Shown piece after piece: positions 6,671-26,443 of a DNA stretch of 64,000 nucleotides (position 1 is its first letter; every line of letters begins with the position of its first letter). The notes below the pieces were generated by a model. The model was not told where the DNA came from, ran no database searches, and saw nothing but the letters and a program-made list of their open reading frames with translations. This DNA is from Chitinophagales bacterium. Lineage in GTDB: Bacteria > Bacteroidota > Bacteroidia > Chitinophagales > Chitinophagaceae. The position numbers and the translations under genes were made by a program. The stretch lies in the NCBI GenBank assembly GCA_015654595.1, contig JAATGQ010000125.1, forward strand, positions 1,209 through 65,208, written 5' to 3'.

Positions 6671-6779
6671 GGCGCCATGTCAATCCATGGCATGACTTAT
6701 TCTGACATCCGCCCGCACCCAAATCAGCTTTTCTGCTGACGCATGTCAGTTCCCAGGCATCTCCGACGGACTACTTTTA
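6671..6779 (+). promoter_or_regulatory. Fnr/FixK-like box with phased half-sites and -7 promoter element of the YceI operon
   Basis: TGACGCATGTCA at 6737; half-sites in the same 22-bp phase at 6715 (..ATCA), 6693 (TGAC..) and 6671 (..GTCA); TACTTTTA starts 24 bp after the box end. Confidence 0.65.
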
Positions 6780-7421: not shown

Positions 7422-7463
7422 CTCATCCAATAACAGAACTTTTACATTTTTCAATTTATTATC

Positions 7464-8798: not shown

Positions 8799-8841
8799 CC
8801 GGAAGACTTTCACCCGCGTATTCAAATAAAACCGATCCGTT

Positions 8842-9450
8842 ATGATCTCCAATATTTTTCTTCCATCCTTGTTGTGCCTCCTGGCTATCGCTCCAAATGC
8901 GGGAAAGGAAAAAAGCTGCTGGGTCGTAGAAAAGAGCAGCAGTCTTCAGATCGTTGGAAAGACGAATATAAGCAAGTGGTCTTGCGGAGTGGCGGAATAC
9001 GCGGAACCTGATACAATAACATTTTTTGACGAGGGATGCCGCGGACAGGTGCGCGGCATCCCTCTTTGCGGGATCGTGCGGATCAATATCGGAGACTTCG
9101 ACTGCCGCAATTCACTGATGACCGGCGAGTTCAAGAAAACGCTGCAGTATAAACAGTACCCCCAGCTGACGATCTCTTTTTTGAACCTCGACCGGATGCC
9201 CGACGCCGCGGTCAAAGGGGAGACCTTGAGCGGAGAAGTGATGATTGCGCTGGCAGGAGTTGCCAAAAAGGTGGTGATGCGGTATTCTTCTACAAGGGTC
9301 GATGCGACCACCATCGAGCTGACAGGCGAACAATCCTTTTGCTTTGCGGACTTCGGATTAACCCCGCCGCGGAAAATGGGCGGACTGATAAGGGTTTCCG
9401 AAGGGCTGGACGTCCGTTTCCTGCTTTGTTTACACCGAATAAATCATTGA
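8842..9450 (+). CDS. YceI family protein (second, Cys-rich)
   Basis: SSLQIVGKTN, MTGEFKKTL..YPQL, IALAGV, FADFGLTPP; signal peptide. Confidence 0.75.
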   Translation: MISNIFLPSLLCLLAIAPNAGKEKSCWVVEKSSSLQIVGKTNISKWSCGVAEYAEPDTITFFDEGCRGQVRGIPLCGIVRINIGDFDCRNSLMTGEFKKTLQYKQYPQLTISFLNLDRMPDAAVKGETLSGEVMIALAGVAKKVVMRYSSTRVDATTIELTGEQSFCFADFGLTPPRKMGGLIRVSEGLDVRFLLCLHRINH

Positions 9451-9485
9451 ATATCAGAAAAATGAATTCTATTTTAAACAAGACA

Positions 9486-9549
9486 TGATCAAGATCATAC
9501 CAGCGGCTGCTCGGGATCATGCCGATTGCCAGACATATAAATAATTTTG
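9486..9549 (+). promoter_or_regulatory. tandem Fnr/FixK-like boxes plus -7 element
   Basis: TGATCAAGATCA (9486) and TGCTCGGGATCA (9508), 22 bp apart; TAATTTTG at 9542. Confidence 0.7.
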
Positions 9550-9566
9550 TTATGGGAGTGTCTATT

Positions 9567-9935
9567 ATGGAATCAAGTTACGAGGTCAGGAATCACCTTA
9601 TCAGCCAGATACAGGAAGAGTTCAACAAGCTCTATCCCTATCTGAAAGTTGTGTTCCGCCAGCAGGGGAATAGCGCGAATGCCTTGCCTGTTACGGGACT
9701 GCACTCGGAAGAACAGATTCGTGATGGGGTCAGGAGTCTTTTGGAAAAAGACATTCACCTGATGGACGGTATGAAGGTCAGCGAGCTGGAAGATTCACTC
9801 GAACAGTTGTTTGGCCAGCGGGCCCAGGTTTTCCGCCGAAGCGGCAATTTCTGGATGGACACGCAGCTAAGCCGGGGCTGGACGCTCAAGCAGCAGAATG
9901 ATCATGGTCAGGACATTTCCTCGGGCTTTCTTTAG
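9567..9935 (+). CDS. conserved-looking small hypothetical protein
   Basis: ISQIQEEFNKLYPYLKV...VFRRSGNFW...WTLKQQN; start moved to ATG 9567 because the -7 box lies downstream of the track start. Confidence 0.7.
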   Translation: MESSYEVRNHLISQIQEEFNKLYPYLKVVFRQQGNSANALPVTGLHSEEQIRDGVRSLLEKDIHLMDGMKVSELEDSLEQLFGQRAQVFRRSGNFWMDTQLSRGWTLKQQNDHGQDISSGFL

Positions 9936-10054
9936 CCCCTGGGGGCGACTTCACTCTTGGGAAAGATAGTTTAAACATCCTTGTCGCCGGTTCAAATGAG
10001 TCCCCTCCCGATGACCGGAGGGGATTTTATGCGACACTTCTAAATTTTAAAAAC

Positions 10055-10876
10055 ATGAAAAAGATACTCTTTGTCTGTGCGGGCAACCATTTTCCGCAAG
10101 GCGCATTTCATTTTTTGCAAAGCATGCAGGAGCATAGCCCTGTAAGTGCCGATGGTTTGTTTTTTCCTCCTGCCGATCTGAAGGAAATGGCGGCTGTAAG
10201 CCAGGTCCCGGTCCTCGGGCCTTATGACCGGTTGAGGGAAAGGGAAAGAAGGACGGTGGATGAACACAAGGTTCAATTCAAGACGCGCTGCGAACAACAC
10301 GGCATCCGTTATCATATCCATCGCAACGATGAACAGTGGGATAAGGAGCTGTTGATTCGTGAAAGCCGTTTTGCAGACCTGATCCTTGTGAGCGGGGAAC
10401 TCTTTTGCGATGACCTGAGCTCACACCAGCCCAATGCCTTTCTGACCGAGGCCCTTCACTTTGCGGAATGCCCCGTTTTTGTCGTTCCGGAGAATTATGA
10501 ACATTGCCATCACCTGTATATGGCCTATGATGGAAGCAGGGAAAGCGTGTTTGCTATAAAGCAGTTTGCCGTCCTTTTCCCTTATCTGGCGGACTTGCCT
10601 GCGGAAGTCATTTATGTAAAAGACGAATCCTCGGAGTTGATCCCGGATCTGGAAAGACTCCGACATTATACAAAGGGGCATTTCGGCAGCCTGAATTTCA
10701 GCAAGCTGCATTTTAAGGCCGGTTCCAATTTTGCGGACTGGATCGAGGAAAAGCCGTATGCGATGCTGATCAGCGGCTCTTATGGCCGCAGCTCCCTGTC
10801 TTATCTGACAAAACGGAGTTTTGCGGGTGAAGTGATTGCCCGTCACAAGACGCCGGTGTTTGTCGCTCATCTCTAA
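10055..10876 (+). CDS. universal stress protein-like
   Basis: SRFADLILV, CPVFVVP, MAYDGS, GSYGRS, PVFVAH. Confidence 0.8.
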   Translation: MKKILFVCAGNHFPQGAFHFLQSMQEHSPVSADGLFFPPADLKEMAAVSQVPVLGPYDRLRERERRTVDEHKVQFKTRCEQHGIRYHIHRNDEQWDKELLIRESRFADLILVSGELFCDDLSSHQPNAFLTEALHFAECPVFVVPENYEHCHHLYMAYDGSRESVFAIKQFAVLFPYLADLPAEVIYVKDESSELIPDLERLRHYTKGHFGSLNFSKLHFKAGSNFADWIEEKPYAMLISGSYGRSSLSYLTKRSFAGEVIARHKTPVFVAHL

Positions 10877-10894
10877 CCTTATAATTTTTTTGTT

Positions 10895-11719
10895 ATGAAC
10901 CCAATTGTCGTTGCGACCAATTTTACTCCCAATAGCGAGAATGCGGCTTTTTATGCCGCAGACATGGCGTTGGCTGCCGGTATGGACATCCGGCTGGTCA
11001 ATGTGCTGAATATGCCCATTGTAGCGGCTTCAGAAGCCCCCATGCCGCAGATCGTATTTGACGATATGCGGGTAAGCAACCTGGCCTTGCTGGATCAGTT
11101 AGCGGAAAAGATGACGGCCAGGACTTTTGGTAAGGTCAGGATCATCCGGGACCTGGAGGTCGGAGAGACGGGCGCCTCGCTGACAGGCTATTGTAAAATG
11201 TATACGCCGTTCATGGTCGTGTTGGGAACCTCGGGGCATTCGCTGGAAAATCTGTTGTCCGGAAGTACGACAGCAAAAAGTTTGCATCGTCTCCACTGCC
11301 CCATCCTGGTAGTTCCCCCCGATGCGCGGTTCCACACCATCAAAAAGATAGTGGTTGCCGTCGGGAAAGAAGACCTGGGCGCCGGCAGCTTGCCGGAGCT
11401 GCCTCTTCTAAAACGGCTGAGTCAACAGTTTGAATCGGATATAGAAGTCGTGCACGTGATGGCAGACGAGGAAAGCGGCTCCGAAGCCGTGATGGCCTAC
11501 AATGGCTGGAAGGATCGGCTGACCGCTTTGAGTCCCGCCCTTCACCTGATCGAACCCGGGGACGTCCAACAAGGTATCCATCGGTATTTGAACGAGCAGT
11601 TGGCAGACTGGCTGCTTGTACTGCCTAAAAAACATGGCTGGCTGGAGTTTCACAAAAGCCAGGCAAAACAGCTGTTGACGCATTGCCCCATACCGGTTAT
11701 TACTATACATGAGGGATAA
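10895..11719 (+). CDS. universal stress protein
   Basis: IVVATNF, MVVLGT, LLSGSTT, CPILVVP, tandem USP domains. Confidence 0.88.
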   Translation: MNPIVVATNFTPNSENAAFYAADMALAAGMDIRLVNVLNMPIVAASEAPMPQIVFDDMRVSNLALLDQLAEKMTARTFGKVRIIRDLEVGETGASLTGYCKMYTPFMVVLGTSGHSLENLLSGSTTAKSLHRLHCPILVVPPDARFHTIKKIVVAVGKEDLGAGSLPELPLLKRLSQQFESDIEVVHVMADEESGSEAVMAYNGWKDRLTALSPALHLIEPGDVQQGIHRYLNEQLADWLLVLPKKHGWLEFHKSQAKQLLTHCPIPVITIHEG

Positions 11720-11792
11720 GGCTCATTTTTCCCACGGGCGTTAGCAGAATGACCAATAGATTGTAACTTGGACAAAAAAATAGACAGGCGGC

Positions 11793-13355
11793 ATGTTTAA
11801 GGAAAAATCAACCCATGTTCTTTTATTTTGTTCCATCGTTACGATAGCGTCTGCAGTCCTGCAGTACCTGAACCCGTCCATGAGTTTTTTTGACGGTGGG
11901 CTGATAACGGCCATCCTGCTGACCATTTTTTTAAACAAGGACGGATACACGCATCTCTTTGGCGCGATCAGCGCGATCCTGGTTCTGGTCGCCGCGTTTT
12001 ATCCACACGAGGGGATGGACAGACAGCAGGTCATCCTACAGCATTTATTCTCTTTGATCGTTGTCGTAATGGCAACGATCTTTGTATTATATGTAAAGCG
12101 GTTGTACCGCAATATCGAGTCCGATCAGCAGCAGGTAACCGCCCTGTTCGAGCACGCGACGGAAGGCATTATCCTGACCAATGACAAAGGCCAGATCATA
12201 CTTTTGAATCCTGCCGCCTACCGCCTTTTTGAATATGAGCAGAACGAGCTGCCCGGCAAATCTATCGATGTGCTGATCCCCCAACGTTTTCATCATTCTC
12301 ACGTCAGCGACAGGGAAGGTTTTTATAAACACCCCGGCAACCGTACGATGGGGCACGGCCGTGATCTTTTTGCCCGCAAGAAGGACGGCCATGAGTTCCC
12401 GGTCGAGGTCAGCCTCAGCTATTACCGCCAGAAGAATACGCTGTTTGTCATCGCCTTTGTCGTAGATATCACGCAGAGAAAACAGTCGGAAAAGGAGCTG
12501 CTGTCGAGACAGCAACAGCTGGAACGTATCTCCCTCGAGGTTCGGAAGATGAATACTGAACTGGAGACGAAGGTCGAACAGCGTACGCTCATCCTGAGAG
12601 AAGCATTAAAGGAACTGGAAAAGTCGCAGGAGGAATTGAGTGAAGCCCTCAGTAAGGAAAAAGAACTGAACGAGATAAAGTCCAGATTCGTCTCGATGGC
12701 ATCGCATGAGTTTCGCACGCCGCTGAGTACTATTCTTAGCAGCGCTGCCTTACTCGGAAAGTATACGCAGACCGAAGAGCAGGACAAACGCGACAGGCAT
12801 ATCCGACGGATAAAGGACTCGGTAAAACATCTCAACGACTTGCTGGAAGACTTCCTTTCCCTCGGTAGACTGGAAGAAGGCAAGATCATGGCCGATCCCA
12901 CGGTCTTTTCTGTAAAGGATTTTCTCGAAGAAGTGGAGGAAGAGATGCGGACGATCACGAAGCCCGGCCAGGAGATCCGCTGTCATTGCGTTGGAGAAGG
13001 CAGCTTTGTAAGCGACAAACGGCTGTTGAAAAATATCCTGATCAATCTGATCAGCAATGCCTCGAAGTTTTCTCCGGATGGGGCCGAGATCCGGCTGGAT
13101 GCCGATGTGACGGAGGCCGGCACGCTTCGGCTGTCCGTGAAGGACCAGGGGATTGGCATCTCGGAGGAAGATCAGCAGCATTTGTTCAGCAGCTTTTTCC
13201 GCGGCGGTAATGCGCTGAATATCGAAGGGACAGGGCTGGGGTTGCACATCGTCGCCCGTTACGCTCAGCTTCTCGGGGGAAATGTAAAACTGGAAAGCCG
13301 GCTGAATGAAGGGACGACGATTACGGTAGAGGTGCCGGCCGCACCAGGGGTGTGA
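11793..13355 (+). CDS. membrane-bound PAS sensor histidine kinase (FixL-like)
   Basis: N-terminal TMs, PAS (LIPQRFHHSH...MGHGRDLFARKKDG..FPVEVSL), coiled coil, SHEFRTPL H-box, NASKFS / DQGIG / GTGLGL ATPase boxes. Confidence 0.92.
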   Translation: MFKEKSTHVLLFCSIVTIASAVLQYLNPSMSFFDGGLITAILLTIFLNKDGYTHLFGAISAILVLVAAFYPHEGMDRQQVILQHLFSLIVVVMATIFVLYVKRLYRNIESDQQQVTALFEHATEGIILTNDKGQIILLNPAAYRLFEYEQNELPGKSIDVLIPQRFHHSHVSDREGFYKHPGNRTMGHGRDLFARKKDGHEFPVEVSLSYYRQKNTLFVIAFVVDITQRKQSEKELLSRQQQLERISLEVRKMNTELETKVEQRTLILREALKELEKSQEELSEALSKEKELNEIKSRFVSMASHEFRTPLSTILSSAALLGKYTQTEEQDKRDRHIRRIKDSVKHLNDLLEDFLSLGRLEEGKIMADPTVFSVKDFLEEVEEEMRTITKPGQEIRCHCVGEGSFVSDKRLLKNILINLISNASKFSPDGAEIRLDADVTEAGTLRLSVKDQGIGISEEDQQHLFSSFFRGGNALNIEGTGLGLHIVARYAQLLGGNVKLESRLNEGTTITVEVPAAPGV

Positions 13356-14065
13356 CGGCGATGAGAGCCTTCGATCACGGCCGTCCGGTGACAGTCGATC
13401 GCGGCCGAAGGATGATCCGGCAGCACCGGGCTGATGAAGGGAATACCAAGGTTGAGCCCGCGCAAAATAAGCAGCACTCCCATCGTAGCCAGAAAGTAAG
13501 GGATCGCCTTTCGCATTTTCACACGAAGCGATACAGACAGCCGATGACCGTACCAGGTAAGGGCCGCCAGCAGGGGCAGCGTTCCGAGTCCAAAACACAA
13601 CATAAATCCTACCGCGCGACCGGTATCCCCGGTACTCAGCGCTGCTGCCAATGCAAAGTAGACCATGCCGCAGGGCAGCAGTCCGTTAGCCATCCCCATA
13701 AAGAAGAACTTCCCCGGCATTTTTATCGTCCAGAGGCGATAGATAACGCGATTCAGCGGACCGGGCAGTATCAGGATCTTTGTAGAGCGCAGCAGGGTAA
13801 AGATCAATACGAATATCCCGGCAATGATAGACAGCTGCTGCTGCCATCCCGCCAGGTAGAGGCTATGTCCAAGCACCCCAAACAAAAGCCCGAGCAGCAT
13901 ATACGTCGCGAGCCGCGCAGCATGATAAGAAACCTGTGCCAGCACCCGGCCGGAGGACGACAGGTGTTGAACGGGCAGGGCCATCAGCAACGGCCCGCAC
14001 ATCCCCGCGCAGTGAAAGCTGCTCAGCAAACCAAGGGACAACGCCGACAGAAGAAGCGGAAACAT
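13265..14065 (-). CDS. sulfite exporter TauE/SafE / DsbD_2 family membrane protein (cbb3 assembly associated)
   Basis: SFHCAGMCGP and NGLLPCGMVY motifs; last gene of the cco run. Confidence 0.85.
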   Translation of the reverse strand: MFPLLLSALSLGLLSSFHCAGMCGPLLMALPVQHLSSSGRVLAQVSYHAARLATYMLLGLLFGVLGHSLYLAGWQQQLSIIAGIFVLIFTLLRSTKILILPGPLNRVIYRLWTIKMPGKFFFMGMANGLLPCGMVYFALAAALSTGDTGRAVGFMLCFGLGTLPLLAALTWYGHRLSVSLRVKMRKAIPYFLATMGVLLILRGLNLGIPFISPVLPDHPSAAIDCHRTAVIEGSHRRHTPGAAGTSTVIVVPSFSRLSSFTFPPRS

Positions 14066-14502
14066 TATCGCAGGTCAAAGCTTTGTTCGTTAAAATAATT
14101 TTTCCCTTCCGCCGTCCAGCTGATCTTTACGGTGTAATGACCGGGGGCCAGCAGGTTGGACGCAATGGTTTGTGCGCCGTCGGCGCCCAGGGTCAGCGGC
14201 ACTTGTCTGTCTTTGGCCTGGTTGGAAGCGCAGTAAAAGAAAACGGTCCCCGTCGTCGACTGCCGCTGCATCTCTGCGGGCAGGCGTAGGGTGATCGCGC
14301 CGTTTTCTTCACGCAGGGTGGCGGCACTGGAAAGGTTGTTGGCATTACGGGTGGCATCGATGACCTGCTGATAAGCCAGCTCCTGTTTGTAGTAGTCGCT
14401 GGCCACGAGGTCTACCGGGGTGTTGACGCAACGATAAACAAGATAGGAGATGCCCGAGGCAAAGACGATAAAGACGATAGTGAGTTTATATCCCCAGTTC
14501 AT
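14065..14502 (-). CDS. ccoH: FixH/CcoH family protein
   Basis: MNWG..TM..DLVASDYYKQELAYQ motif, after ccoG. Confidence 0.85.
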   Translation of the reverse strand: MNWGYKLTIVFIVFASGISYLVYRCVNTPVDLVASDYYKQELAYQQVIDATRNANNLSSAATLREENGAITLRLPAEMQRQSTTGTVFFYCASNQAKDRQVPLTLGADGAQTIASNLLAPGHYTVKISWTAEGKNYFNEQSFDLR

Positions 14503-14513
14503 GATAGTATGTT

Positions 14514-15956
14514 TTAGTTGTTATCGGCTATAGGACCCAAGAAGTTGGTACGGATATCATCTATCTTTTTACCATTTTCATAGAGCCCGATATGTAATAG
14601 GGTTTTACGCTGCCGGATGTTTTGTTTTGGAAGGATGATAAAGAAATTGCCGGCGCCTTCTTCTTCCTTTTTGACGATCACCGATGAGCCGCCGATGACC
14701 TGGACGGTACCGTTGTTGTCTTCCAGCCGGAGCTGCAGCGGAATATCACGGATCGTTTTGTTGGCTATTTTGACGGTATAAAGGTTGGAGACGCTGTCCT
14801 GTCCCCTTTCCTGGTAAAGCATTCCGGGTGTACGCATCACCGTAGTGTCGACGTCTTTGCGGCTTAGCAGCAGCGCCGCCAGCAGGATAAGCAGTATAGA
14901 AAGCAGACCGGTATAGAGTTTCATCCGCAGTGTGTAGCGCAAGGGTTCGGCGGTAGAAATGCCATTTTCGGAGGCGTAACGGATAAGCCCTGTGGGCCGT
15001 CCCGTCTTTTCCATCATATGGTTACAGGCGTCGATACAGGCCGTACAACCAACGCATTCCATCTGAACGCCATTCCGGATGTCGATCCCGGTCGGGCATA
15101 CTTTGACGCACTGAAAACAGTCGATACAGTCTCCTAGTTCGGCGGATTTTGTCTTACTGAATTTGCCCCTTGGTTCGCCGCGTTTGTAGTCGTAGGCGAC
15201 GATCATCGAGTTCCGGTCAAGCAATACGCTTTGAAGACGACCGTAAGGACATATGGCGGTACAGACCTGCTCGCGAAAGAAGGCGTATACGCCGTAGAAG
15301 ACACCGGAAAAGACGAGCATGGAAAGAAGTCCTCCGATATGTTCACTGACACGGCCGGTAATGATCCCACCCAGCTGTTTTACACCGATGATATAGGCCA
15401 GAAAGGTGTTGGCGATAATAAAGGATAAAAGATAGAAAGCAACGTGCTTGGTAGATTTGATCAGGATCTTTTTTGTGGTCCAGGGTGCGGCTTTGAGTTG
15501 TCTTTGCCGGGGAGCATCGCCTTCGATCAGGTATTCGACCTTGCGGAACAGCATCTCCATAAAGACGGTCTGCGGACAGACCCATCCACAGAAAAGACGG
15601 CCGAAGGCGGCGGTGAAGAGGATCACGAAGATGATAAACGTGACCATCGTCAGACCGAAGATAAAGAAGTCCTGAGGCCAGAAGATCTTCCCAAAGACAA
15701 TAAAATGGGCCGACGAGATATTAAACAGGAATAACGGCTGCCCATGAATATAGATAAAGGGCAGTGCAAAGAACAGAAGAAAGAATCCTCCGCTGATCCA
15801 GCTGCGCATGTTATACCACTTGCCGTCGGGCTTCTGTGCAAAGACCCATTTGCGACGACCGCTGTTGTCGAGGGTGGCCAGGTGATCGCGAAAGGACTGG
15901 CCGGCAGCGGCGCTGCTGCCGAGGCTGCTGTTTTGAGCGGAAGATTCTTCTTTCAT
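14514..15956 (-). CDS. ccoG: cytochrome c oxidase accessory protein CcoG (4Fe-4S)
   Basis: GRLFCGWVCPQT, CPYGRLQ, CIDCFQCVKVCPTGIDIR, CVGCTACIDAC. Confidence 0.95.
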   Translation of the reverse strand: MKEESSAQNSSLGSSAAAGQSFRDHLATLDNSGRRKWVFAQKPDGKWYNMRSWISGGFFLLFFALPFIYIHGQPLFLFNISSAHFIVFGKIFWPQDFFIFGLTMVTFIIFVILFTAAFGRLFCGWVCPQTVFMEMLFRKVEYLIEGDAPRQRQLKAAPWTTKKILIKSTKHVAFYLLSFIIANTFLAYIIGVKQLGGIITGRVSEHIGGLLSMLVFSGVFYGVYAFFREQVCTAICPYGRLQSVLLDRNSMIVAYDYKRGEPRGKFSKTKSAELGDCIDCFQCVKVCPTGIDIRNGVQMECVGCTACIDACNHMMEKTGRPTGLIRYASENGISTAEPLRYTLRMKLYTGLLSILLILLAALLLSRKDVDTTVMRTPGMLYQERGQDSVSNLYTVKIANKTIRDIPLQLRLEDNNGTVQVIGGSSVIVKKEEEGAGNFFIILPKQNIRQRKTLLHIGLYENGKKIDDIRTNFLGPIADNN

Positions 15957-15960
15957 ATTC

Positions 15961-17133
15961 TTATTTGGATAGCGTCCCCTGAGGCGCTTTTGCGTTATCA
16001 GGATTGGTACCGTGCAGGGATTTCACATAACTGGCGATCTGTTGTATCTGGGATGGCGAAAAATCGTCTTTCCAGCTTTTCATGCCTTTGTCGGGCCAGC
16101 CATATTTTATCGTTTTAAAAACGTCCTGTATACTTCCGCCATGGAGCCAGTAGTCGTCGGTGAGGTTGGGACCTACCCCGCCCTCTCCGTGTTTGCCATG
16201 ACAGGCAAAGCAGATGCTTTCGAAGACGGTTTTTCCGGCGGCAAGACTTGCGGGATCGGTCAACAGTTTGACGGTAGTTTCGTCGACATTGTTGGCGGCT
16301 TTCTTGAGGTAGTCGGCCTTTGCCTGCTGGGCTTTCTGTACGGAGATCGCGTATTCTTCTGCACTAAGCGGCGCGGTGTGCCCGATATGATAGCGATAAA
16401 GATATATACAGGCAAAGATGATGGTGCAGTAGAAGCCATAGATCCACCATGGGGGCAGACGGTTGTCGAGCTCCCGGATGCCGTCATAGTCGTGGCCGAG
16501 GAGGATGTCTTTCTCTTGTTCGATGGGCTTGAAGCTGTTCACCTTATCCCAAAGGGTAACGGTTGGTTTTGCAGCAACAAGGGCAGCAGCGGCGGTCTTC
16601 TTTTTCTTTGCGATGAGTTTGCGCAGGTTGTAGAGCAGCCCCAGCACGATCAGAACTTCGAGGAAGATCACGCCGGTGATCACATAGAAAGCGGTGTCGG
16701 AGAGGCCATTGACGTTGGAGGTCACGACGCCGGCGGTCACGGTCGATGCGTCCGATCCGGCTGAAGCGTGGCCTGCATCTGTTGACTGGGCAGCAACTGG
16801 GCTGCTGATCAGCATCGTAGCAGCGATGATGATCCCGGCGATCAGCGTGGCGGCGGGCGGAAACCCCGTCGATGGGTTGGATGCGGCGGCAGGACCGCTG
16901 GCTATTAGGCTGCCTGCCCTGGCGGAAGCGTCGGCAGCAGGGCCGTTTTCGCTGGCGCGGCCCGGCTTTTCGGGAGCGCCAGGGCCATCGTCCCCTTCGG
17001 GATTGCCAAGCCTGTATTGGGCCGCGCCAAGAACCACGTTTGCGAGCAGGATAATGGCCAGCGCCAGGATCAGGATGACGACGATCATCATCACGACGAA
17101 TGAATTATCGGTGGAAGAAGGTACTGGTGGCAT
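15961..17133 (-). CDS. ccoP: cbb3-type cytochrome c oxidase subunit III (mono-heme, N-terminally extended)
   Basis: HDYDGIRELDNRLPPWW and a single CFACH heme motif, GPNLTDDYWLHGG. Confidence 0.92.
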   Translation of the reverse strand: MPPVPSSTDNSFVVMMIVVILILALAIILLANVVLGAAQYRLGNPEGDDGPGAPEKPGRASENGPAADASARAGSLIASGPAAASNPSTGFPPAATLIAGIIIAATMLISSPVAAQSTDAGHASAGSDASTVTAGVVTSNVNGLSDTAFYVITGVIFLEVLIVLGLLYNLRKLIAKKKKTAAAALVAAKPTVTLWDKVNSFKPIEQEKDILLGHDYDGIRELDNRLPPWWIYGFYCTIIFACIYLYRYHIGHTAPLSAEEYAISVQKAQQAKADYLKKAANNVDETTVKLLTDPASLAAGKTVFESICFACHGKHGEGGVGPNLTDDYWLHGGSIQDVFKTIKYGWPDKGMKSWKDDFSPSQIQQIASYVKSLHGTNPDNAKAPQGTLSK

Positions 17134-17149
17134 ATTACTATTTTTGGGG

Positions 17150-17320
17150 TTAGGCGTTGTCTTTTGTCAAAGGAATGTTCCGTATCTCTTCGATCATTCC
17201 GCGGTCTGCTTTAATGGTCCAGATAAGCATCACGAGGAAGATAGTGCCGAACAGCAGCAGGGAAGAGAGCCCATAGATACTGACGCCGCTGATCTTTTCG
17301 ATATAGTTGATAAATTTCAT
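17150..17320 (-). CDS. ccoQ: cbb3-type oxidase subunit CcoQ-like small membrane protein (56 aa)
   Basis: Manual translation MKFINYIEKISGVSIYGLSSLLLFGTIFLVMLIWTIKADRGMIEEIRNIPLTKDNA, one TM, between ccoNO and ccoP; below the track cut-off. Confidence 0.82.
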   Translation of the reverse strand: MKFINYIEKISGVSIYGLSSLLLFGTIFLVMLIWTIKADRGMIEEIRNIPLTKDNA

Positions 17321-17333
17321 GTGCGTTGTTTTG

Positions 17334-19490
17334 TTAGTTACCCATTACGGATGTTCCGTCTTTTGCCGCGGTCTGATCTTTTGGCGCCAGCTTTATATCC
17401 TTGCCAAGGCGTTGCAGATAAGCGATCAGCGCTACGATCTCCTTTGTATCGGGAGTACTGATCTTATCGCCCTTCAGGGAAGCCTTTATGCTGTCTGCCT
17501 GTTTGAGCAGGTCGTGGTTGGCTTGCAGCGCATAGTTATCGGGATAAGGCACACCCAGCTTCTGCATCGCATGGATCATAGACTCAGTGCGGTTGGTGTC
17601 GATGTTGTCATCGAACAGCCAGTTGTAAGAAGGCATGATCGAACCGGGTGACATGGAAGGAGGATCAAGCAGGTGGTTGTAGTGCCAGCTGTCGGGATAC
17701 TTCCCGCCTACCCTCGCCAGATCGGGTCCTGTTCTTTTTGATCCCCATTGAAAAGGATGGTCGTAGACAAATTCACCGGCTTTGGAGTACTCGCCATAGC
17801 GGGCTACTTCGTCTCGGAAAGGACGTACCATCTGGGAGTGACAGAGGTAGCAGCCTTCGCGGATGTAGATATCACGACCATGCAATTCCAGTGGGGTGTA
17901 GGGTTTTACGCTACTGATGGTAGGAATATTGGATTTAACGAGGAAGGTTGGTATCATTTCGATCAAACCGCCGATGGCAACCGCAATAAGGCTGAATACA
18001 AGCATTTGCAGCGGACGTCTTTCGATCCAGCGGTGCCAGTAGGTCTTGCCGTGTGTTTCGGTCTCTGCTTCAGCAGCCGGCGCCTGTGCCAGTTCGTTGG
18101 CGGTGAAGTAACCTTGTTTTATCGTCTTGTGAAGGTTATACGCCATTACAAATACACCGGACAGATAGAGTGCGCCGCCGATGCTTCGGGTGACATACAT
18201 CGGGATAATATGTGTCACCGTCTCGAGGAACTGGAACTTCAGCTGTCCTTCTTCGGTAAAGCTCTTCCACATCATGCTTTGAGTGAATCCCGCCCAGTAT
18301 AGCGGTACAGTGTAAAGCACGATACCGATAGTCCCGATCCAGAAGTGAGTAGTGGCGAGCTTTTTCGAGTACAGCGGCGTATTCCACATTTTTGGGATCA
18401 GGTAGTAGAGCACGCTGAAGGTCAGGAAGCCATTCCATCCCAGGGCGCCGACGTGTACGTGTGCGATGGTCCAGTCGGTAAAGTGAGAGATGGTGTTGAC
18501 GCTTTTAAGACTGAGCATGGGTCCTTCAAAAGTGGCCATGCCATAGCAGGTGATCGCGACGACCATAAACTTGAGCACGGGATCTTCTTTTACTTTATCC
18601 CATGCGCCGCGGAGGGTAAAGAGACCGTTTAGCATACCGCCCCAGCTAGGCGCCAGCAGCATGATAGAGAATACGACACCCAGCGACTGCGCCCAGTCGG
18701 GCAATGCGGTGTATAGCAAATGGTGAGGCCCTGCCCATATATAGATAAAGATAAGCGCCCAGAAGTGAATGATGGAAAGCCGATAGGAGTAGATCGGCCG
18801 ATTGGCGGCCTTTGGCAGGAAGTAGTACATCAGACCCAAATAGGGAGTGGTCAGGAAGAACGCAACGGCGTTATGGCCATACCACCATTGCACAAGCGCA
18901 TCCTGAACGCCGGCATACCAGCTATAGCTTTTCCAGAAAGAAACGGGCAATTCGATAGAGTTAACAATATGCAGCATCGCTACGGTGACCCAGGTGGCGA
19001 TATAAAACCAGATGGCGACATAGATATGCTTCTCGCGCCGTTGAAGGATGGTTCCGAACATATTAATGCCAAAGACGACCCATACAAGGGTGATGGCGAT
19101 ATCTAGCGGCCATTCCAGTTCGGCATATTCCTTACCTGTCGTCTTTCCCGCCCAAAGGGTGATGGCGCCAACGATGATGATCAGCTGCCAACCCCAGAAA
19201 TGGATAGCACTCAGGGTATTGCTGAACATCCTGGTCTTACAGAGTCTTTGCAGGGAATAGTAGACGCCCATAAAGATACCGTTACCCACAAAGGCAAAGA
19301 TCACGGCGTTGGTATGAACGGGGCGCATCCGGCCAAAGGTGGTGGCGGGGATACCCAGGTTCATAGACGGATAGTAGAGAGCAACGGCCGCCCACAGACC
19401 GGCGAGCATGCCGATGATGCCCCAGAAGACAACGGCGTAGGCAAATCGTTTAACCGTTTTGTTGTCGTAATAAAATTGTTCGAGTTGCAT
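17334..19490 (-). CDS. ccoN: cbb3-type cytochrome c oxidase subunit I/II fusion (CcoNO)
   Basis: QWWYGHNAVAFFLT, WAGPHH, HVHVGALGW, then EGCYLCHSQMVRP and WGSKRTGPDL; start at MQLEQ. Confidence 0.97.
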   Translation of the reverse strand: MQLEQFYYDNKTVKRFAYAVVFWGIIGMLAGLWAAVALYYPSMNLGIPATTFGRMRPVHTNAVIFAFVGNGIFMGVYYSLQRLCKTRMFSNTLSAIHFWGWQLIIIVGAITLWAGKTTGKEYAELEWPLDIAITLVWVVFGINMFGTILQRREKHIYVAIWFYIATWVTVAMLHIVNSIELPVSFWKSYSWYAGVQDALVQWWYGHNAVAFFLTTPYLGLMYYFLPKAANRPIYSYRLSIIHFWALIFIYIWAGPHHLLYTALPDWAQSLGVVFSIMLLAPSWGGMLNGLFTLRGAWDKVKEDPVLKFMVVAITCYGMATFEGPMLSLKSVNTISHFTDWTIAHVHVGALGWNGFLTFSVLYYLIPKMWNTPLYSKKLATTHFWIGTIGIVLYTVPLYWAGFTQSMMWKSFTEEGQLKFQFLETVTHIIPMYVTRSIGGALYLSGVFVMAYNLHKTIKQGYFTANELAQAPAAEAETETHGKTYWHRWIERRPLQMLVFSLIAVAIGGLIEMIPTFLVKSNIPTISSVKPYTPLELHGRDIYIREGCYLCHSQMVRPFRDEVARYGEYSKAGEFVYDHPFQWGSKRTGPDLARVGGKYPDSWHYNHLLDPPSMSPGSIMPSYNWLFDDNIDTNRTESMIHAMQKLGVPYPDNYALQANHDLLKQADSIKASLKGDKISTPDTKEIVALIAYLQRLGKDIKLAPKDQTAAKDGTSVMGN

Positions 19491-19501
19491 ATTGGGGTAT
19501 T

Positions 19502-19678
19502 TCAATTTTTATGAAGGTGTTCCGGATCTGTGATGAGTGGAGGGTCGTCGAATAAGATCCGTTGGGGTGGCGAAAAGCCGTCGTCATATTGTCTGTTCCT
19601 GACATTCCAGATAAATAACCCGAGGAAGACAAGGGCTACGGAGAGACTGGCTATCAGCAGGATGATGAGGACACTCAT
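19502..19678 (-). CDS. ccoS: cbb3-type oxidase assembly protein CcoS (58 aa)
   Basis: Manual translation MSVLIILLIASLSVALVFLGLFIWNVRNRQYDDGFSPPQRILFDD...; QYDD and RILFDD motifs. Confidence 0.9.
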   Translation of the reverse strand: MSVLIILLIASLSVALVFLGLFIWNVRNRQYDDGFSPPQRILFDDPPLITDPEHLHKN

Positions 19679-19706
19679 AAGTAAATGCGCTTAAAGAATA
19701 ATAGTG

Positions 19707-19771
19707 CAAAAGTATCGGGCGGCGGCGGAGCGCTGGATGACAGGGATCAAGGGAAAAACTGATTTTTCTCA
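19707..19771 (-). promoter_or_regulatory. tandem Fnr/FixK-like boxes plus -7 element of ccoS-ccoNO
   Basis: TGACAGGGATCA (19738) and TGATTTTTCTCA (19760), 22 bp apart; minus-strand TACTTTTG begins at 19714, 24 bp from the proximal box. Confidence 0.75.
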
Positions 19772-22339
19772 TTTTTGGGCTGTCGCGCTTGATCTGAGGC
19801 GCTTGCCGGATACATCAGGCGTGGCTGGTTTCGCCGATTTCCGCAGCAGCAGGCGTCCGGCCAATCCTGAACAGCTATAGGTAAGCAGCAATATGCTCAA
19901 TGAGCTTGCGGGCATCAGTATAGCGGCGACCAGCGGCGAAAGCTCGCCTCTGACGGCAAATGAAAGCCCCACGATATTGTATAGTATCGACACGATAAAG
20001 CTGGCCAGGATAATACGGTGTCCGGACCGGCAGAGCCGGATAAAAGCCGGCAGCTGCCATAGCTGACGCTCATTGAGGATGACGTCACTGGCAGGTGTGA
20101 AAGTGTTGTTGTCGGAAGAAAGCGCTATACCGACATTGCTCTGTCGCAGCGCACCGGCGTCGTTGAGGCCATCGCCTATAAACAGCACTTGTTTACCCGC
20201 GGCCTGCAGCTGGCTGATGTACCTCTCCTTGTCTGCGGGGGATTGATGAAAGAGGAGTTCAGCGTCGGGTCCGAATATTTCCTTCAGCCGCTGCTTTTCC
20301 CGGTCGGTATCTCCCGACAAAACGGAACAAGGCATGGGGAGTCGGCAGACTAGTTCGCCAATCCCCTCCCGGTAGTGGTTAGCGTAACGGAAGACGCCTT
20401 TATACTTCCCATCGATGGCGATGTGAACCGCCTGCCGGGAGTCGGGGTTGCCGGTGATAAAGGCTGAAGACCCGAGCCGGATATGATGGCCGGAGAAATA
20501 TCCCTCCAGACCTTTGCCGGGGATCTCCAGAAAATGGCTGACCGGGCCTTCGGGCTTTCCAGTAAAGAAAGCCGCCAACGCCTTACTATGCGGGTGAAGG
20601 GATTGGGATGCGATCGCAGCGATCGCATTTTTATCTTCGGGCGAAAGCGGCTTTCCTTCGAAGAAGATATCGGCCTTGGCGGAATCGGTAAGGGTTCCGG
20701 TTTTGTCAAAGACGATATGCGTCGTGGCAGCAATGCGCTCGATCGTCGGCGCGTTGCGCAGATAACATTGGTTCCTGGAAAGGATACGCAGCAGATTGCC
20801 ATTTGTAAAGGTTGTCGACAACAGCAGCGCACAGGGGCAGGCCACGATCAGCACGGCAGTGACGGCCGAGGCGATACGGGCAGGGTCATGAAAAGCCCAG
20901 AAGACGGCAGTCAGCGCGGCTATCGTAAAAAGTACATACGTAAAGTAGCGGCTCAGAATGTCAGAGGACGTGAGTGCAAAAGGCGAGCGCGCCGGCGCGG
21001 ACGCTCGCAGCCTGGTAGTTTGCGTGCTGGCGCTGGATGCTGTCTCTGATAGGGATGGCCGCAACGGCGCGGCTGGTGCGGGCTTCTCCTGCCGGTCCCA
21101 CAGCTGCGTCAGATAACTCTGCACCACTTCTTTGACGACAAGCACCTCTATCGACGAACCGGTCTGCCGGCCGCCGGCATACACCAGCTCGCCTATCTCC
21201 CGGGCAACAGGCGCCGATTCCCCGGTCACAAAACTATAGTCGATCAACGCCTTTCCGCGGGTAAGGATGCCATCGGCCGGGATCAGCTCGCCGTTATGGA
21301 TAAGGAGCGTGTCGCCTGACCGGATATCGGGGAGCGCCTTTACGGTTGGACCGGGCACGCCAACGCGCGATGAATCAGCGGCTGGCGCGACAATACTCAC
21401 AGCCATCGGAAAATAGGCCGTATAATCCCGCTCGAAAGAAAGCTGTCGGTAAGTCTTATCCTGCAACACACGACCGGCCAGCATAAAGAATACGATCCCG
21501 CTCATCGAGTCGAAATAACCCGACCCTGTTCCGGACAGCACCTCCCAGACGCTGCGGGAAAAAGTGACCCAGATGGCCAGCACGATGGGCGCATCGATAT
21601 TCAACAGCCCGCGGCGAAGACTGCCCCAGGCCGAACGATAAAATGGTATCGAGCTATAAAATAAAATGGGCAATGCCAGCACAAAACTGATATACCGAAA
21701 AGCCGTCTGCAGCGCCTTATCGGAAGCATCGGAACTGACCTTAAGTCCCAGGTATTCGGGAAAACACAGCAGCATGATATTGCCAAAACAGAATCCGGCT
21801 ACACCCAGCTGATAGACCATGGACCTGGACAGGCCGGGACGGCTTTGCCCCAGATCATGAAGACTGATATAAGGTTCATAGCCCAGACTGGCAAGGAGCT
21901 CTACGACCTGCCTCAGACTTATCTGCTGCTGGCGGAAGACAACAGATATTTTTTTGGCGGTAAAATCGATACGTGACGCTATCACGCCAGGCTCCAGCCG
22001 ATGAAGGTTTTCCAGCAGATAAAGACAGGAGCTGCAATGGATCTGTGGGAGGTAAAGCGTTGTATGGGTCTCTGTCTCATTTTTAAAGGACACCAGCGCC
22101 GTATTCATTTTTTCCTCGTCGAGAAACGCAAATTTATCCTTGCGGACCGAAAGACGGAGATTGATACCGGGATGATCATTCAGCTGGTAGTATTGGCATA
22201 GACCTCTTTCATCCAGCAGCTGATAAACCATCCGGCATCCCTGACAGCAAAACGATTTGTCGTCTAGCCAAATATCGTCTGTCGGGCAGGGTTCTCCGCA
22301 ATGCGTACAAAGGAGCGCTGATTCGGTAAGAGTTTCCAT
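19769..22339 (-). CDS. ccoI: heavy-metal (Cu) P1B-type ATPase CcoI/FixI
   Basis: CxHCG..CCxGC N-terminal domain, HCSSC HMA domain, TGES, CPC, DKTGT, GDGLND. Confidence 0.93.
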   Translation of the reverse strand: METLTESALLCTHCGEPCPTDDIWLDDKSFCCQGCRMVYQLLDERGLCQYYQLNDHPGINLRLSVRKDKFAFLDEEKMNTALVSFKNETETHTTLYLPQIHCSSCLYLLENLHRLEPGVIASRIDFTAKKISVVFRQQQISLRQVVELLASLGYEPYISLHDLGQSRPGLSRSMVYQLGVAGFCFGNIMLLCFPEYLGLKVSSDASDKALQTAFRYISFVLALPILFYSSIPFYRSAWGSLRRGLLNIDAPIVLAIWVTFSRSVWEVLSGTGSGYFDSMSGIVFFMLAGRVLQDKTYRQLSFERDYTAYFPMAVSIVAPAADSSRVGVPGPTVKALPDIRSGDTLLIHNGELIPADGILTRGKALIDYSFVTGESAPVAREIGELVYAGGRQTGSSIEVLVVKEVVQSYLTQLWDRQEKPAPAAPLRPSLSETASSASTQTTRLRASAPARSPFALTSSDILSRYFTYVLFTIAALTAVFWAFHDPARIASAVTAVLIVACPCALLLSTTFTNGNLLRILSRNQCYLRNAPTIERIAATTHIVFDKTGTLTDSAKADIFFEGKPLSPEDKNAIAAIASQSLHPHSKALAAFFTGKPEGPVSHFLEIPGKGLEGYFSGHHIRLGSSAFITGNPDSRQAVHIAIDGKYKGVFRYANHYREGIGELVCRLPMPCSVLSGDTDREKQRLKEIFGPDAELLFHQSPADKERYISQLQAAGKQVLFIGDGLNDAGALRQSNVGIALSSDNNTFTPASDVILNERQLWQLPAFIRLCRSGHRIILASFIVSILYNIVGLSFAVRGELSPLVAAILMPASSLSILLLTYSCSGLAGRLLLRKSAKPATPDVSGKRLRSSATAQK

Positions 22340-22356
22340 GTGCGTCGAATAATGCG

Positions 22357-22421
22357 GCAAAGTAGCCCGTGTGGTTAATACGGGGCCTGACCGTTATCAG
22401 GGAAATTTATGATCCTGGTCA
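22357..22421 (-). promoter_or_regulatory. tandem Fnr/FixK-like boxes plus -7-like element of ccoI (divergent from the regulator)
   Basis: TGACCGTTATCA (22388) and TGATCCTGGTCA (22410), 22 bp apart; minus-strand TACTTTGC begins at 22364, 24 bp away. Confidence 0.75.
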
Positions 22422-22490
22422 ACCTGTAGGGTGAATTATATTGTTTACAATTGCGGATCAATTACCTTTGATTACTTAAACAGTTATTCC

Positions 22491-23531
22491 ATGCGCAAGC
22501 TGCTGGTCATTGACGATCATGATGATATCCGGGAAAATATCGCTGAGATCCTGGGCCTCGCCGGTTACGAAGTTATCACCGCAGAAAACGGGAAAAGGGG
22601 AGTCGAAAAAGCCTTGAAAGAACATCCGGAACTGGTTATCTGCGATATCATGATGCCGGAGCTGGATGGTTATGGCGTGCTGCATCTGTTGCGCAAGAAT
22701 GCGGCAACGGAGAATGTACCTTTTATTTTCCTGACGGCCAGGACGGAGCGGCAGGATTTCCGTAAGGGTATGGAAATGGGCGCGGATGATTATATCACAA
22801 AACCTTTTGATGATATCGAACTGCTGAATGCGATCGAGATCCGGCTAAAAAAGTACGATATCTTACAGGGCAAATATGCAGATGACGAGAAAGGCGTAAG
22901 CGGTCTGATCACCGACCTGAATGCGTCCGGGATGTTAAAGCTCGATCCGAACAACTATGAAGAAGAAGAGTTGGGTAAGAAGCTCACGGTCTACCTGGAA
23001 GGACGACGGCCAAAATATCTTTATTTTCTCAGGAAGGGCAAGGTAAAAGCCTATCGGGTGCATGAAGACGGGAAGGAGTATATCACCAATCTATACACGG
23101 AAGGTGATTATATTGGTTATCTGCCGATCCTGGAGAATAAGGTGTATGAAGATTCGGCCGTGGTGCTGGAAGATGCGGTCCTGGCAAGAATCCCGCGGGA
23201 CGAGTTCATGGACCTGTTGTTTAAAGATATCCATATCGCTACGAAGTTTATCCGGCTGATCGCGCAAAATGTCCAGGAAAAGGAGGAAAGATTGCTCAGC
23301 CTGGCTTATGGATCGCTGCGGAAACGGGTGGCGAAGGCGCTGCTGGATATTCATGCCAAGTTTGGCGTAGTCCTTGATATTTCGCGGGAAGATATTGCCC
23401 AGTATGTTGGGACGGCGACGGAGTCGTTGATCCGAACGCTGAGTGATTTTAAATCGGAGAAGCTGATCGATATAAAAGAAGGGAAGATACGAATATCGGA
23501 CATCCAGAAACTCCAAAACATGTTATACTAA
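22491..23531 (+). CDS. response regulator with receiver + cNMP-binding + Crp/Fnr HTH domains
   Basis: LLVIDD..CDIMMP..KPF receiver; SREDIAQYVGTATESLIRTLS Crp HTH; start at MRKLL after TACCTTTG (22463). Confidence 0.92.
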   Translation: MRKLLVIDDHDDIRENIAEILGLAGYEVITAENGKRGVEKALKEHPELVICDIMMPELDGYGVLHLLRKNAATENVPFIFLTARTERQDFRKGMEMGADDYITKPFDDIELLNAIEIRLKKYDILQGKYADDEKGVSGLITDLNASGMLKLDPNNYEEEELGKKLTVYLEGRRPKYLYFLRKGKVKAYRVHEDGKEYITNLYTEGDYIGYLPILENKVYEDSAVVLEDAVLARIPRDEFMDLLFKDIHIATKFIRLIAQNVQEKEERLLSLAYGSLRKRVAKALLDIHAKFGVVLDISREDIAQYVGTATESLIRTLSDFKSEKLIDIKEGKIRISDIQKLQNMLY

Positions 23532-24915: not shown

Positions 24916-26331
24916 TCAGATCGCGTTGCTAAAAAGGGGCTTGCTGATTCCCGTAAGGGTTGCTTTTCCGCAAAGCGTTGGGTTTTCTGTACGGGCTTCT
25001 TCATCGCGAAGCAGGCGCAGATCAAAGGCTTTGCAGCAGTGACGCAGAAAGGGGCGGCCTGCTTCCGTCAGCGAAACGCCGTTGTTGTCGAGATGGACCA
25101 GCCCATCTTTTTCCAGATCACGAAGACGAGGCAGCGTATAGCGCTGGAGCACACCGGACCAGCGTTCGTCAAACCGGGTATATCCTTTACAGGCGATGTC
25201 GAGAATATGCTGGCGGAAGACAAGGTCTTCCTGTGACAGGAAATAATTCTTTGCTATAGCTAAATGTCCTTCGTTGACCGAGCGATAATAGCCGGTAATG
25301 CTCTTGTCGTTCTGCGCAAAGGCTGAGCCGATATCACTGATCGCGGATACGCCAAGGCCGATCAGCAGACCGCTGTTCTGTGTCGTATAACCCATAAAGT
25401 TCCGATGGAGGCGGCCGGTTCCCGCGGCCTTGAACAACTCGTCACCCGGCAGCGCAAAGTGATCCATGCCGATGTTGGCATAGCCGTTACTGGTAAAGAG
25501 TTCTTTTCCCAGCAGGTAAAGATCCAGCTTCCCGGAAGCGGTTGGCAGCTGCGACTCATCGATGAGACGCTGCGAGCAGTTGATCCAGGGGGTGTGGGCA
25601 TAGCTGTAAAAGGCGATGCGGTCGGGGCGAAGGCTGAGGATCTGGGTGATGGTGTGGAGAAGTCTGGCAGCTGTCTGGGCTGGCAGACCATAAACAATAT
25701 CAAAATTGACTGCCGTAAAGCCGGCCCTTCTTGCGGCGTCGGTTGCGCGCCGCAGGTCTTCAAAGGACTGTATACGGTGGATAGCCTGCTGAACTTCCGG
25801 GTTCAGATCCTGGACGCCATAGCTGATCCGGCGAAATCCCAGGCGGTACAGGGTTTCGAGGTGTGCGGGACTTGTATTGGAAGGATGACCTTCGATGCTG
25901 AAAGAATGATCAGGATGAACGATCGCATCTTTCAGGATGGAAGACAACATCCTCTCCAGGTTTGCAGGGCTAAAGAAGGTCGGAGTACCACCCCCCAGAT
26001 GTATCTCGCGGATAACCGGGGGTTGGGACTCCATCATTTCTGTGTACATACTCCATTCCTTCTGAATGGCGCGAACGTATTCTTCTTCGACTTTATGGTT
26101 GGCAGTGATCTTTTTGTTGCAGCCGCAATAGATGCAAAGCGATTCGCAAAAGGGCAGGTGGATATAAAGGCTGATGCCTTCTGTTTCGTTTTTTATCCGA
26201 AACATATCGCTAAAATTCTTCTTCCAACGGCCCGGGTTGGGTTGGTCGTTCCAAAACGGAACGGTCGGATAGCTGGTGTAGCGTGGAACCGGCTGGTTGT
26301 ATTTGAGCAGAAGGCTGTCTGTGTTGATCAC
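24916..26331 (-). CDS. hemN: oxygen-independent coproporphyrinogen III oxidase
   Basis: PRYTSYPT, CESLCIYCGC radical-SAM motif, GGGTPT, RNFMGY; GTG start chosen downstream of the -7 box. Confidence 0.93.
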   Translation of the reverse strand: MINTDSLLLKYNQPVPRYTSYPTVPFWNDQPNPGRWKKNFSDMFRIKNETEGISLYIHLPFCESLCIYCGCNKKITANHKVEEEYVRAIQKEWSMYTEMMESQPPVIREIHLGGGTPTFFSPANLERMLSSILKDAIVHPDHSFSIEGHPSNTSPAHLETLYRLGFRRISYGVQDLNPEVQQAIHRIQSFEDLRRATDAARRAGFTAVNFDIVYGLPAQTAARLLHTITQILSLRPDRIAFYSYAHTPWINCSQRLIDESQLPTASGKLDLYLLGKELFTSNGYANIGMDHFALPGDELFKAAGTGRLHRNFMGYTTQNSGLLIGLGVSAISDIGSAFAQNDKSITGYYRSVNEGHLAIAKNYFLSQEDLVFRQHILDIACKGYTRFDERWSGVLQRYTLPRLRDLEKDGLVHLDNNGVSLTEAGRPFLRHCCKAFDLRLLRDEEARTENPTLCGKATLTGISKPLFSNAI

Positions 26332-26346
26332 TGGAAAAAAATTTCT

Positions 26347-26411
26347 CAAAAGTAACTTCCATGACAGGCGTGGGAAATGATGCACATCACCCCTAAAAAT
26401 GATTTCGATCA
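26347..26411 (-). promoter_or_regulatory. tandem Fnr/FixK-like boxes plus -7 element of hemN
   Basis: TGATGCACATCA (26378) and TGATTTCGATCA (26400), 22 bp apart; minus-strand TACTTTTG begins at 26354, 24 bp away. Confidence 0.78.
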
Positions 26412-26443
26412 TTTTGGGACAAAAATGCCAGTTAATACACCAA

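Follow-up and report, generated by a model that had tools for sequence, protein, structure and literature searches.

In a 64,000-nucleotide stretch of a Chitinophagales genome (contig JAATGQ010000125.1; hereafter the window), a sensor histidine kinase with a predicted heme-binding PAS domain and a response regulator that joins a receiver to a Crp/Fnr module (REC-Crp) stand on either side of the genes for a cbb3 oxidase. From their sequences, we consider it probable that the two form a cognate pair in which the kinase phosphorylates REC-Crp at low oxygen and REC-Crp directly activates the cbb3 genes, hemN, and other low-oxygen genes. In the mechanism we propose, His170 of the kinase PAS would bind heme b; oxygen bound on the distal side, with Arg190 assisting and Met186 as a possible competitor, would keep the kinase off, and loss of oxygen would switch it on. 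Phosphorylation would then favor the active Crp-type dimer of the regulator. Possibly two such dimers would occupy tandem operator boxes; the dimer on the nearer box, at -41.5, would contact RNA polymerase in class II fashion. As a variant of heme-PAS two-component oxygen signaling with Crp/Fnr output, the pair is genuine and conserved, and it appears not to have been studied. A search of listings and abstract beginnings, with subscription journals mostly outside its coverage, found neither a study of this kinase-regulator pair nor one on low-oxygen sensing by aerobic Bacteroidota.

The association of the two genes was examined in 120 loci with a full-length regulator, the window included (80 from a scan and 40 from a phylum sample; one frameshifted locus, L058, was left out). 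In 89 of them the kinase gene immediately precedes the regulator gene, in the same orientation. In the window, as a preliminary description of this DNA had noted, the pair instead flanks opposite-strand cbb3 genes, and the gene calls show the two genes enclosing the entire minus-strand cluster. This split layout, with the kinase upstream across the cco genes, is a minority state (11/120). No kinase was found in the flank of 16 loci, and the flank was too short in 4. Quick trees of the kinase core and of the regulator (29 rows) have their main groups in common. Judged from these data, the kinase and the regulator are likely a cognate two-component system. The regulator family comprises at least 7,999 proteins. 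It is present in 41 of 301 genomes of the phylum, 40 of the 41 belonging to the window's class, and in 52 of 101 genomes sampled from the order Chitinophagales. The pair is also present in the non-pathogenic strains Chitinophaga rupis DSM 21039, Sediminibacterium magnilacihabitans DSM 22423, and Puia dinghuensis. Positions 5471-18111 of the mobilizable plasmid pHsw1 of Hymenobacter swuensis contain the whole module of kinase, regulator, two group III truncated hemoglobins, and cbb3 cluster, and the regulator also occurs on other Hymenobacter, Runella, and Spirosoma plasmids.

The kinase consists of PAS (residues 115-228), HisKA (296-363), and HATPase_c (408-517) domains. Its phospho-accepting His305 is conserved in 81 of 84 kinases, and a transmembrane (TM) N terminus is predicted by hydropathy in 9 of 81 relatives. 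The PAS motifs QRFHHSH and MGHGRDL, which had been aligned by eye with the proximal His and distal Arg segments of FixL, were located at residues 164-170 and 186-192, and the assignment held: in the HMMER alignment to Sinorhizobium meliloti FixL (1d06, E 1e-10), His170 coincides with the His of 'YRHEH' and Arg190 with the Arg of 'IIGIDR'. Bradyrhizobium japonicum FixL (1dp6) is also among the PAS matches (E 3e-9). Arg190 is the counterpart of the distal Arg of FixL and DosP. All 14 PAS matches among Protein Data Bank (PDB) sequences are FG214, FixL, or DosP. The best of them is FG214 (10jx, E 3e-13), which scores ahead of FixL. At the position of an Ile in FixL, the distal loop carries Met186; the HMMER alignment pairs His170 and Met186 with His156 and Met172 of FG214. 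Across 84 relatives, His170 is conserved in 83, Arg184 in 73, Met186 in 74, and Arg190 in 61. Xing et al. (PMC10468136) regard the F-alpha His as the main determinant of heme binding in the FixL/DosP cluster. The preliminary description had also looked to a structural alignment with FixL. The AlphaFold2 (AF2) model of the PAS domain (pLDDT 93.6) aligns with FixL 8js5 at Z 17.2 and a root-mean-square deviation (rmsd) of 1.9 over 124, with DosP at Z 16.6 (rmsd 1.7, 110), and, at the top rank, with FG214 at Z 17.8 (rmsd 2.1, 115). From alignment and model together, the window PAS is predicted to bind heme b through His170.

A comparison of relatives bears on the nature of the signal. In 8 of the 84, an II-G-x-GR FixL-type PAS takes the place of the window subtype. 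The seven that were compared are 42-47% identical to the PAS of S. meliloti FixL (SmFixL) and 29-37% to the window PAS, and the kinase cores that bear them are 42-51% like the window core and 24-29% like the FixL core. In the PAS tree, the FixL-type domains group with SmFixL (100/100), and the window PAS is on the opposite side of that branch. An approximately unbiased test on these data was set aside as confounded by an additional paralogue in the out-set. The presence of two heme-PAS subtypes on one kinase argues that it is a heme signal that counts; it does not identify the ligand.

Several observations weigh against the scheme proposed above. Arg190 is variable, with Met in 14 and Leu in 4 of the 84 relatives. 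The flavin-type PAS domains of LOV and NifL proteins also match the AF2 model (Z 15.8-16.1), so the fold alone is no proof of heme. FG214, the closest solved PAS, is a hexacoordinate, redox-switched (His/His-His/Met) heme sensor, which the distal loop with its Met resembles; the distal His175 of FG214 aligns to Gly189. The cco genes lie inside the flank retrieved in only 45 of the 120 loci, and ccoN is absent from 15 of the 52 REC-Crp genomes of the order sample, which counts against a role confined to cbb3. Two more PAS kinases encoded in the genome (contigs C17 and C60) could provide the real or an additional input. With the same wiring and regulon, the heme might instead read redox state, NO or CO, or heme supply by His/Met ligand switching of the FG214 kind, an alternative that we regard as unlikely, though the least unlikely of those considered here. 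It draws on FG214 being the best match in both sequence and structure, with the ligand pair His156-Met172 in its reduced crystal (bioRxiv 10.64898/2026.03.15.711900), and on the retention of Met186 in 74/84 against the replacement of Arg190 in 23/84. The predicted targets Ric, Rrf2, and nosZ and the truncated hemoglobins beside the pair on the Hymenobacter plasmid point the same way. Oxygen is favored by the FixL/DosP-type distal Arg of the window protein, by the FixL-type PAS on the same kinase in relatives, and by the core targets cbb3 and hemN. Moreover, DosP uses Met and yet senses oxygen.

The two other PAS kinases have surroundings of their own. The C17 gene (1058-2629) encodes a second TM-PAS kinase with 80% PAS identity, and its 4-kb contig carries no regulator. 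It is followed by an mlaE ABC operon whose promoter has tandem boxes (29.6 bits). On C60 (22587-25784), the kinase keeps the His and RPMG and has Lys at the distal Arg position; nearby are a degenerate small receiver-like open reading frame (ORF), two standalone Crp genes, an alcohol dehydrogenase fragment, and two tandem-box sites.

The regulator proved to be the receiver-Crp/Fnr fusion first described, with its ESLIR recognition helix at residues 311-315 and without the Fnr Cys cluster; its single Cys is in the receiver. Where standalone Fnr-like proteins of Bacteroidia have their four Cys columns, the regulator has a gap, Gly, Phe, and Ala, and the Crp half lacks any Cys in 88 of the 120 homologues. 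The receiver phosphorylation residues Asp52, Thr82, and Lys104 are intact. Asp52, Lys104, Glu311, and Arg315 are invariant in 55 aligned rows, and the helix Glu and Arg are kept in 120/120. The signature of cAMP-binding CRP consists of the phosphate-binding cassette G-E...R-[ST] and an R-E recognition helix; it is absent from the regulator, which has G-Y...Y-E-D-S-A and T-E-S-L-I-R. No solved REC-Crp fusion was found among the top PDB matches listed.

An unbiased scan of 188 upstream regions returned TGA-N6-TCA as the top spaced palindrome (127 regions versus 15 when shuffled). The second palindrome, TCA-N10-TGA (92 versus 16), arises because the boxes stand 22 bp apart. A strict box, TGAY-N4-RTCA, precedes ccoS-ccoNO in 30 of 33 cases (shuffle mean 0.6). 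A second exact box occurs at offset -22 in 41/173 and at +22 in 41/177, with any other offset reaching at most 3. Spacers between box and TAnnTTT peak at 23 (33 counts) and 45 (46 counts), all others giving at most 5. In PMC9723704, the Bacteroidota -7 element TAnnTTTG is placed at -12 to -5. Taking that placement, the box centers fall at -41.5 and -63.5. FNR and CRP act as class II activators from -41.5, so the nearer box leads us to predict that the regulator activates. Transcription is predicted to begin ~12 nt beyond the first T of the -7 element. The outer base of the box is unconstrained (A 254, C 211, T 111, and G 54 of 630), the outer T of TTGAT-N4-ATCAA not being conserved. By analogy with the contacts of FNR, this may be accounted for by Ile314, which stands at the place of Ser in FNR ETISR.

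A site profile was built from 73 training sites, none of them from the window, and used at a threshold of 20 bits. Of the 12 sites that it found in the genome, 4 are in the window; shuffled sequence gave 0 and 0. Its top match genome-wide is the ccoS-ccoNOQP promoter (43 bits). Across the loci there were 251 profile sites (69 of them training sites); shifting either spacing reduced the number to at most 15 and at most 33, and shuffling to 0. The ccoI promoter occupies the intergenic region shared with the divergent regulator gene. The likely further site before the 138-codon gene has a spacer one base short and is not among the profile matches. Positive autoregulation through the class II layout was considered and rejected, as it appeared in 0/119 regulator and 4/81 kinase upstream regions; among held-out sites, 2 precede regulator genes and 7 kinase-like genes.

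The 12 genome sites precede ccoS-ccoNO, hemN, ccoI, yceI, a NiFe hydrogenase operon, an aldehyde dehydrogenase gene, mlaE (a site that adjoins the paralogous C17 kinase gene), and five ORFs that are small or unknown. An ORF follows 178 of the held-out sites; the genes concerned include Hsp20 (17), cytochrome c (16), Ric (13), Rrf2 (11), ccoI (11), hemN (10), pyridoxamine-oxidase-like (9), and clade II nosZ (3) genes, among others; CBS, BON, and hemerythrin genes also stand behind held-out sites in relatives. PMC9723704 reports that cbb3 and heme genes go up under oxygen limitation in a Flavobacterium. Among the sequencing runs consulted, no entry for RNA was listed. Homologues of the 138-codon gene were found in 29 of the first 80 loci, usually behind the boxes, and the strict box is present in 21 of 37 homologue upstream regions.

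On contig C242 (L232:3697-11001), the NiFe hydrogenase operon and the divergent hypA/hypB/hypF genes have a common tandem-box promoter (28.4 and 19.0 bits). As a sequence feature, this promoter suggests low-oxygen use of H2 in this Puia-like bacterium. The 138-codon gene itself (9519-9935) is a Bacteroidota hypothetical that belongs to no Pfam family and has only the label 'hypothetical' in the Atlas. A unit of YceI, a porin-like protein of 444 aa, and a protein of 202 aa (6822-9450) is box-controlled by prediction and is also found near the pair in loci L043, L088, and L102.

The box is not confined to genomes with REC-Crp. Sixty further ccoNO regions contained 22 full-length standalone Crp proteins near ccoI, and all 22 have four Cys and a helix of the GTATE-x-x-IR type (4-Cys Fnr). 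Among same-class genomes, 18 of 21 without REC-Crp and 18 of 20 with it have the strict box, as does 1 of 19 genomes from other classes. As a box common to REC-Crp and 4-Cys Fnr, it belongs to both factors. Tandem boxes were entertained as a REC-Crp signature and discarded: they follow lineage, being present in Chitinophagales with only 4-Cys Fnr, and another family has single boxes.

The two factors are unevenly distributed in the order sample. Of its 69 ccoN-bearing genomes, 37 have REC-Crp and 32 lack it; a 4-Cys Fnr-like protein turned up in 8 of the former and 27 of the latter, in a hand count of kin that are not independent. For this count, 40 + 4 matches were checked, the matches in G331 and G340 were dropped as REC-Crp itself, and the GTSTE helix variant was included. 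The strict-helix 4-Cys type gave 3/37 versus 13/32. From these sequence counts, REC-Crp appears to have largely replaced the 4-Cys Fe-S Fnr in many Chitinophagales. Other 4-Cys Fnr-like subtypes in the order have GTVKETAIR and G-x-x-RETxTR helices. In the present genome, contig C117 (2255-2953) encodes a Cys-rich Crp with a different helix, GATYETVFR, possibly a second gas or metal sensor.

These counts also raise the question of which factor reads the boxes. Tandem boxes of at least 20 bits precede ccoNO in 6 of the 21 same-class genomes without REC-Crp versus 8 of the 20 with it, and in 8 of those 20 a 4-Cys Fnr gene lies beside ccoI; the box is not specific to REC-Crp, which weighs against the scheme proposed above. 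The boxes could be read by another Crp/Fnr protein, either a 4-Cys Fnr missing from the assembly or a paralogue, and the pair would then control part of the genes or something else. We hold this to be improbable, even though standalone 4-Cys Fnr-like proteins come with the same box, in REC-Crp genomes too. Only REC-Crp has the E-S-x-I-R helix among the 9 Crp-profile matches in this genome, and no 4-Cys Fnr with such a helix is among them; because the assembly is 87% complete, such a Fnr is not thereby shown to be absent. In the order sample, 29 of the 37 genomes with both ccoN and REC-Crp (all at least 95% complete except the window's) have no 4-Cys Fnr match. The regulator gene, moreover, is divergent from ccoI, where another family has its Fnr gene.

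Table 1. Position and strand of the genes, pocket residues, and promoters discussed, in window coordinates.
Feature	Position	Strand	Description
Sensor histidine kinase, 520 aa	11793..13355	+	~3 hydrophobic N-terminal segments, PAS, HisKA with phospho-His305, HATPase_c (Pfam, hydropathy)
Predicted heme pocket	12300..12362	+	His170 (proximal), Arg184, Met186, Arg190; from conservation and alignment to FG214 and FixL
Response regulator REC-Crp/Fnr, 346 aa	22491..23531	+	Response_reg, cNMP_binding, HTH_Crp_2 (Pfam); true start ATG 22491, stop 23531
cbb3 oxidase cluster between kinase and regulator	13265..22339	-	ccoI, ccoS, ccoNO fusion, ccoQ, ccoP, ccoG, fixH, dsbD2
hemN	24916..26331	-	TIGR00538, 410 bits; likely true start GTG 26331, downstream of boxes
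Likely regulon genes	6822..11719	+	YceI, porin-like 444 aa, 202 aa, 138 aa hypothetical, two Usp-like proteins
ccoS-ccoNOQP promoter	19707..19771	-	boxes 19760-19771 and 19738-19749, 22 bp apart; 23 nt; -7 element 19707-19714
ccoI promoter	22357..22421	-	boxes 22410-22421 and 22388-22399; 23 nt; TACTTTGC at 22357-22364; 25.5 bits
hemN promoter	26347..26411	-	boxes 26400-26411 and 26378-26389; 23 nt; -7 element 26347-26354; 34.6 bits
yceI-porin operon promoter	6715..6779	+	half box 6715-6726, full box 6737-6748; 23 nt; -7 element 6772-6779; 23.5 bits
Likely further site before 138-codon gene	9486..9549	+	boxes 9486-9497 and 9508-9519; 22-nt spacer to -7 element

The closest named relatives belong to Puia (Chitinophagaceae; 73-81% identity). 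Calls in the cbb3 cluster include PRK14485 at 1277 bits and TIGR02745 over its cut-off; ccoS and the putative ccoQ are named from size and position. The pair and the cbb3 genes are flanked by hemN, which lies 1.4 kb beyond the regulator gene, an acetyl-CoA hydrolase gene, Usp-like genes, and the YceI-porin group. The longest hemN frame (24916-26496) is ~55 codons too long and would contain the boxes and the -7 element, which argues for the GTG start. In CcoP (15961-17133), ~90 aa of low-complexity sequence rich in Ala, Pro, and Ser are inserted between two hydrophobic segments, ahead of the FixP_N domain. Two Usp-like paralogues of 273 aa each (5716-6537 and 10055-10876) are 51% identical and are not recognized by Pfam.

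Aerobic Bacteroidota are abundant in soil and water, and a kinase, a regulator, their residues, an operator, and a regulon can now be named as candidates. As a broader and more tentative proposal, which we put forward at less than even confidence, the pair could serve aerobic Bacteroidia as their master hypoxia switch and be the founding case of a class of response regulators whose output module is a complete Crp/Fnr protein. In this proposal, an Fe-S Fnr would have lost its Cys and gained a receiver, interchangeable heme-PAS domains (FixL-type or His/Met) would serve one kinase, and a dimer of dimers built by phosphorylation on boxes 22 bp apart would govern cbb3, hydrogenase, and the clade II N2O reductase. 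Because the predicted regulon of relatives includes clade II nosZ, the pair may set the timing of N2O consumption. If true, the system would show how phosphorylation can govern a Crp/Fnr protein and how the FixLJK problem can be solved by convergence.

The preliminary description had seen in the pair a FixL-FixJ-FixK cascade compressed into two proteins. The functional logic of that claim is supported by comparison, with a cognate pair, a FixL-class heme His, and an Fnr-type operator at an activator position before cbb3 and hemN; descent from FixL, FixJ, or FixK is not supported. The H-box is HEFRTP, compared with HELNQP in FixL, and core identity to FixL is 25%; when the kinase matches of the genome are ranked against the FixL core, the window kinase comes 52nd of 58. 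The receiver is 28% identical to FixJ (rank 7/34 in the genome), and the output is of the Crp rather than the LuxR type. A clade of REC-Crp with FixK was rejected (approximately unbiased test, p-AU 0.009; 34 of 79 rows, only two of them FixK). That the proteins are true descendants of FixL, FixJ, and FixK, with the FixJ receiver fused to FixK, is therefore very improbable, even with a similar box, similar targets, and the window PAS as the best FixL-PAS match of 5 in the genome. The Crp halves of REC-Crp form one group (100/99; 79 rows) inside a Bacteroidota Crp group (91/93) that also holds 4-Cys Fnr and three paralogues. A clade of REC-Crp with 4-Cys Fnr was not rejected (p-AU 0.27), which is no proof of it. 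On these trees, the likely origin of the regulator lies inside the Crp/Fnr radiation of Bacteroidota; in many Chitinophagales it appears to stand in for 4-Cys Fnr, so the likeness to FixLJK would be convergent. By sequence, the pair is an analogue of FixLJK and not a member.

The FixL-FixJ-FixK system, known from S. meliloti and B. japonicum, and the hFixL-FxkR-FixK system of Rhizobium leguminosarum are outlined in PMC7888657. Like them, the window system combines a heme-type PAS kinase, a receiver, and a Cys-free Crp/Fnr factor, and it shares with FixK systems the TGA-N6-TCA core box and, by prediction, cbb3 and its assembly genes as targets. Unlike FixLJK, it would use one regulator for both steps, without an intervening transcription step. 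The kinase core is of another H-box class than FixL, and the window PAS is of an RxMG subtype (RTMGHGR) rather than the Ile-rich IIG-x-GR. The output is cNMP_binding plus HTH_Crp_2 and not the LuxR-type HTH of FixJ; in contrast to FixK sites, the window boxes are in 22-bp tandem, and the outer T/A of TTGAT-N4-ATCAA is not conserved. FG214, a one-component factor of Fimbriimonas (PDB 10JX), offers the closest solved PAS by sequence and fold; however, it is an HTH-PAS protein with no kinase, has a distal His175 where the window has Gly, and lacks Arg at the Arg190 position. The proximal His and distal Arg also align with those of Escherichia coli DosP, which differs in its phosphodiesterase output and in its distal-loop Met, aligned two residues later at window His188. 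With FNR/FnrN and the Bacteroidia 4-Cys Fnr, the regulator shares the E-x-x-x-R helix and, with 4-Cys Fnr, the same box and the promoter position before ccoS-ccoNO. Unlike FNR and 4-Cys Fnr, it has lost the four Cys and gained a receiver, and its input would thus be phosphorylation rather than an Fe-S cluster.

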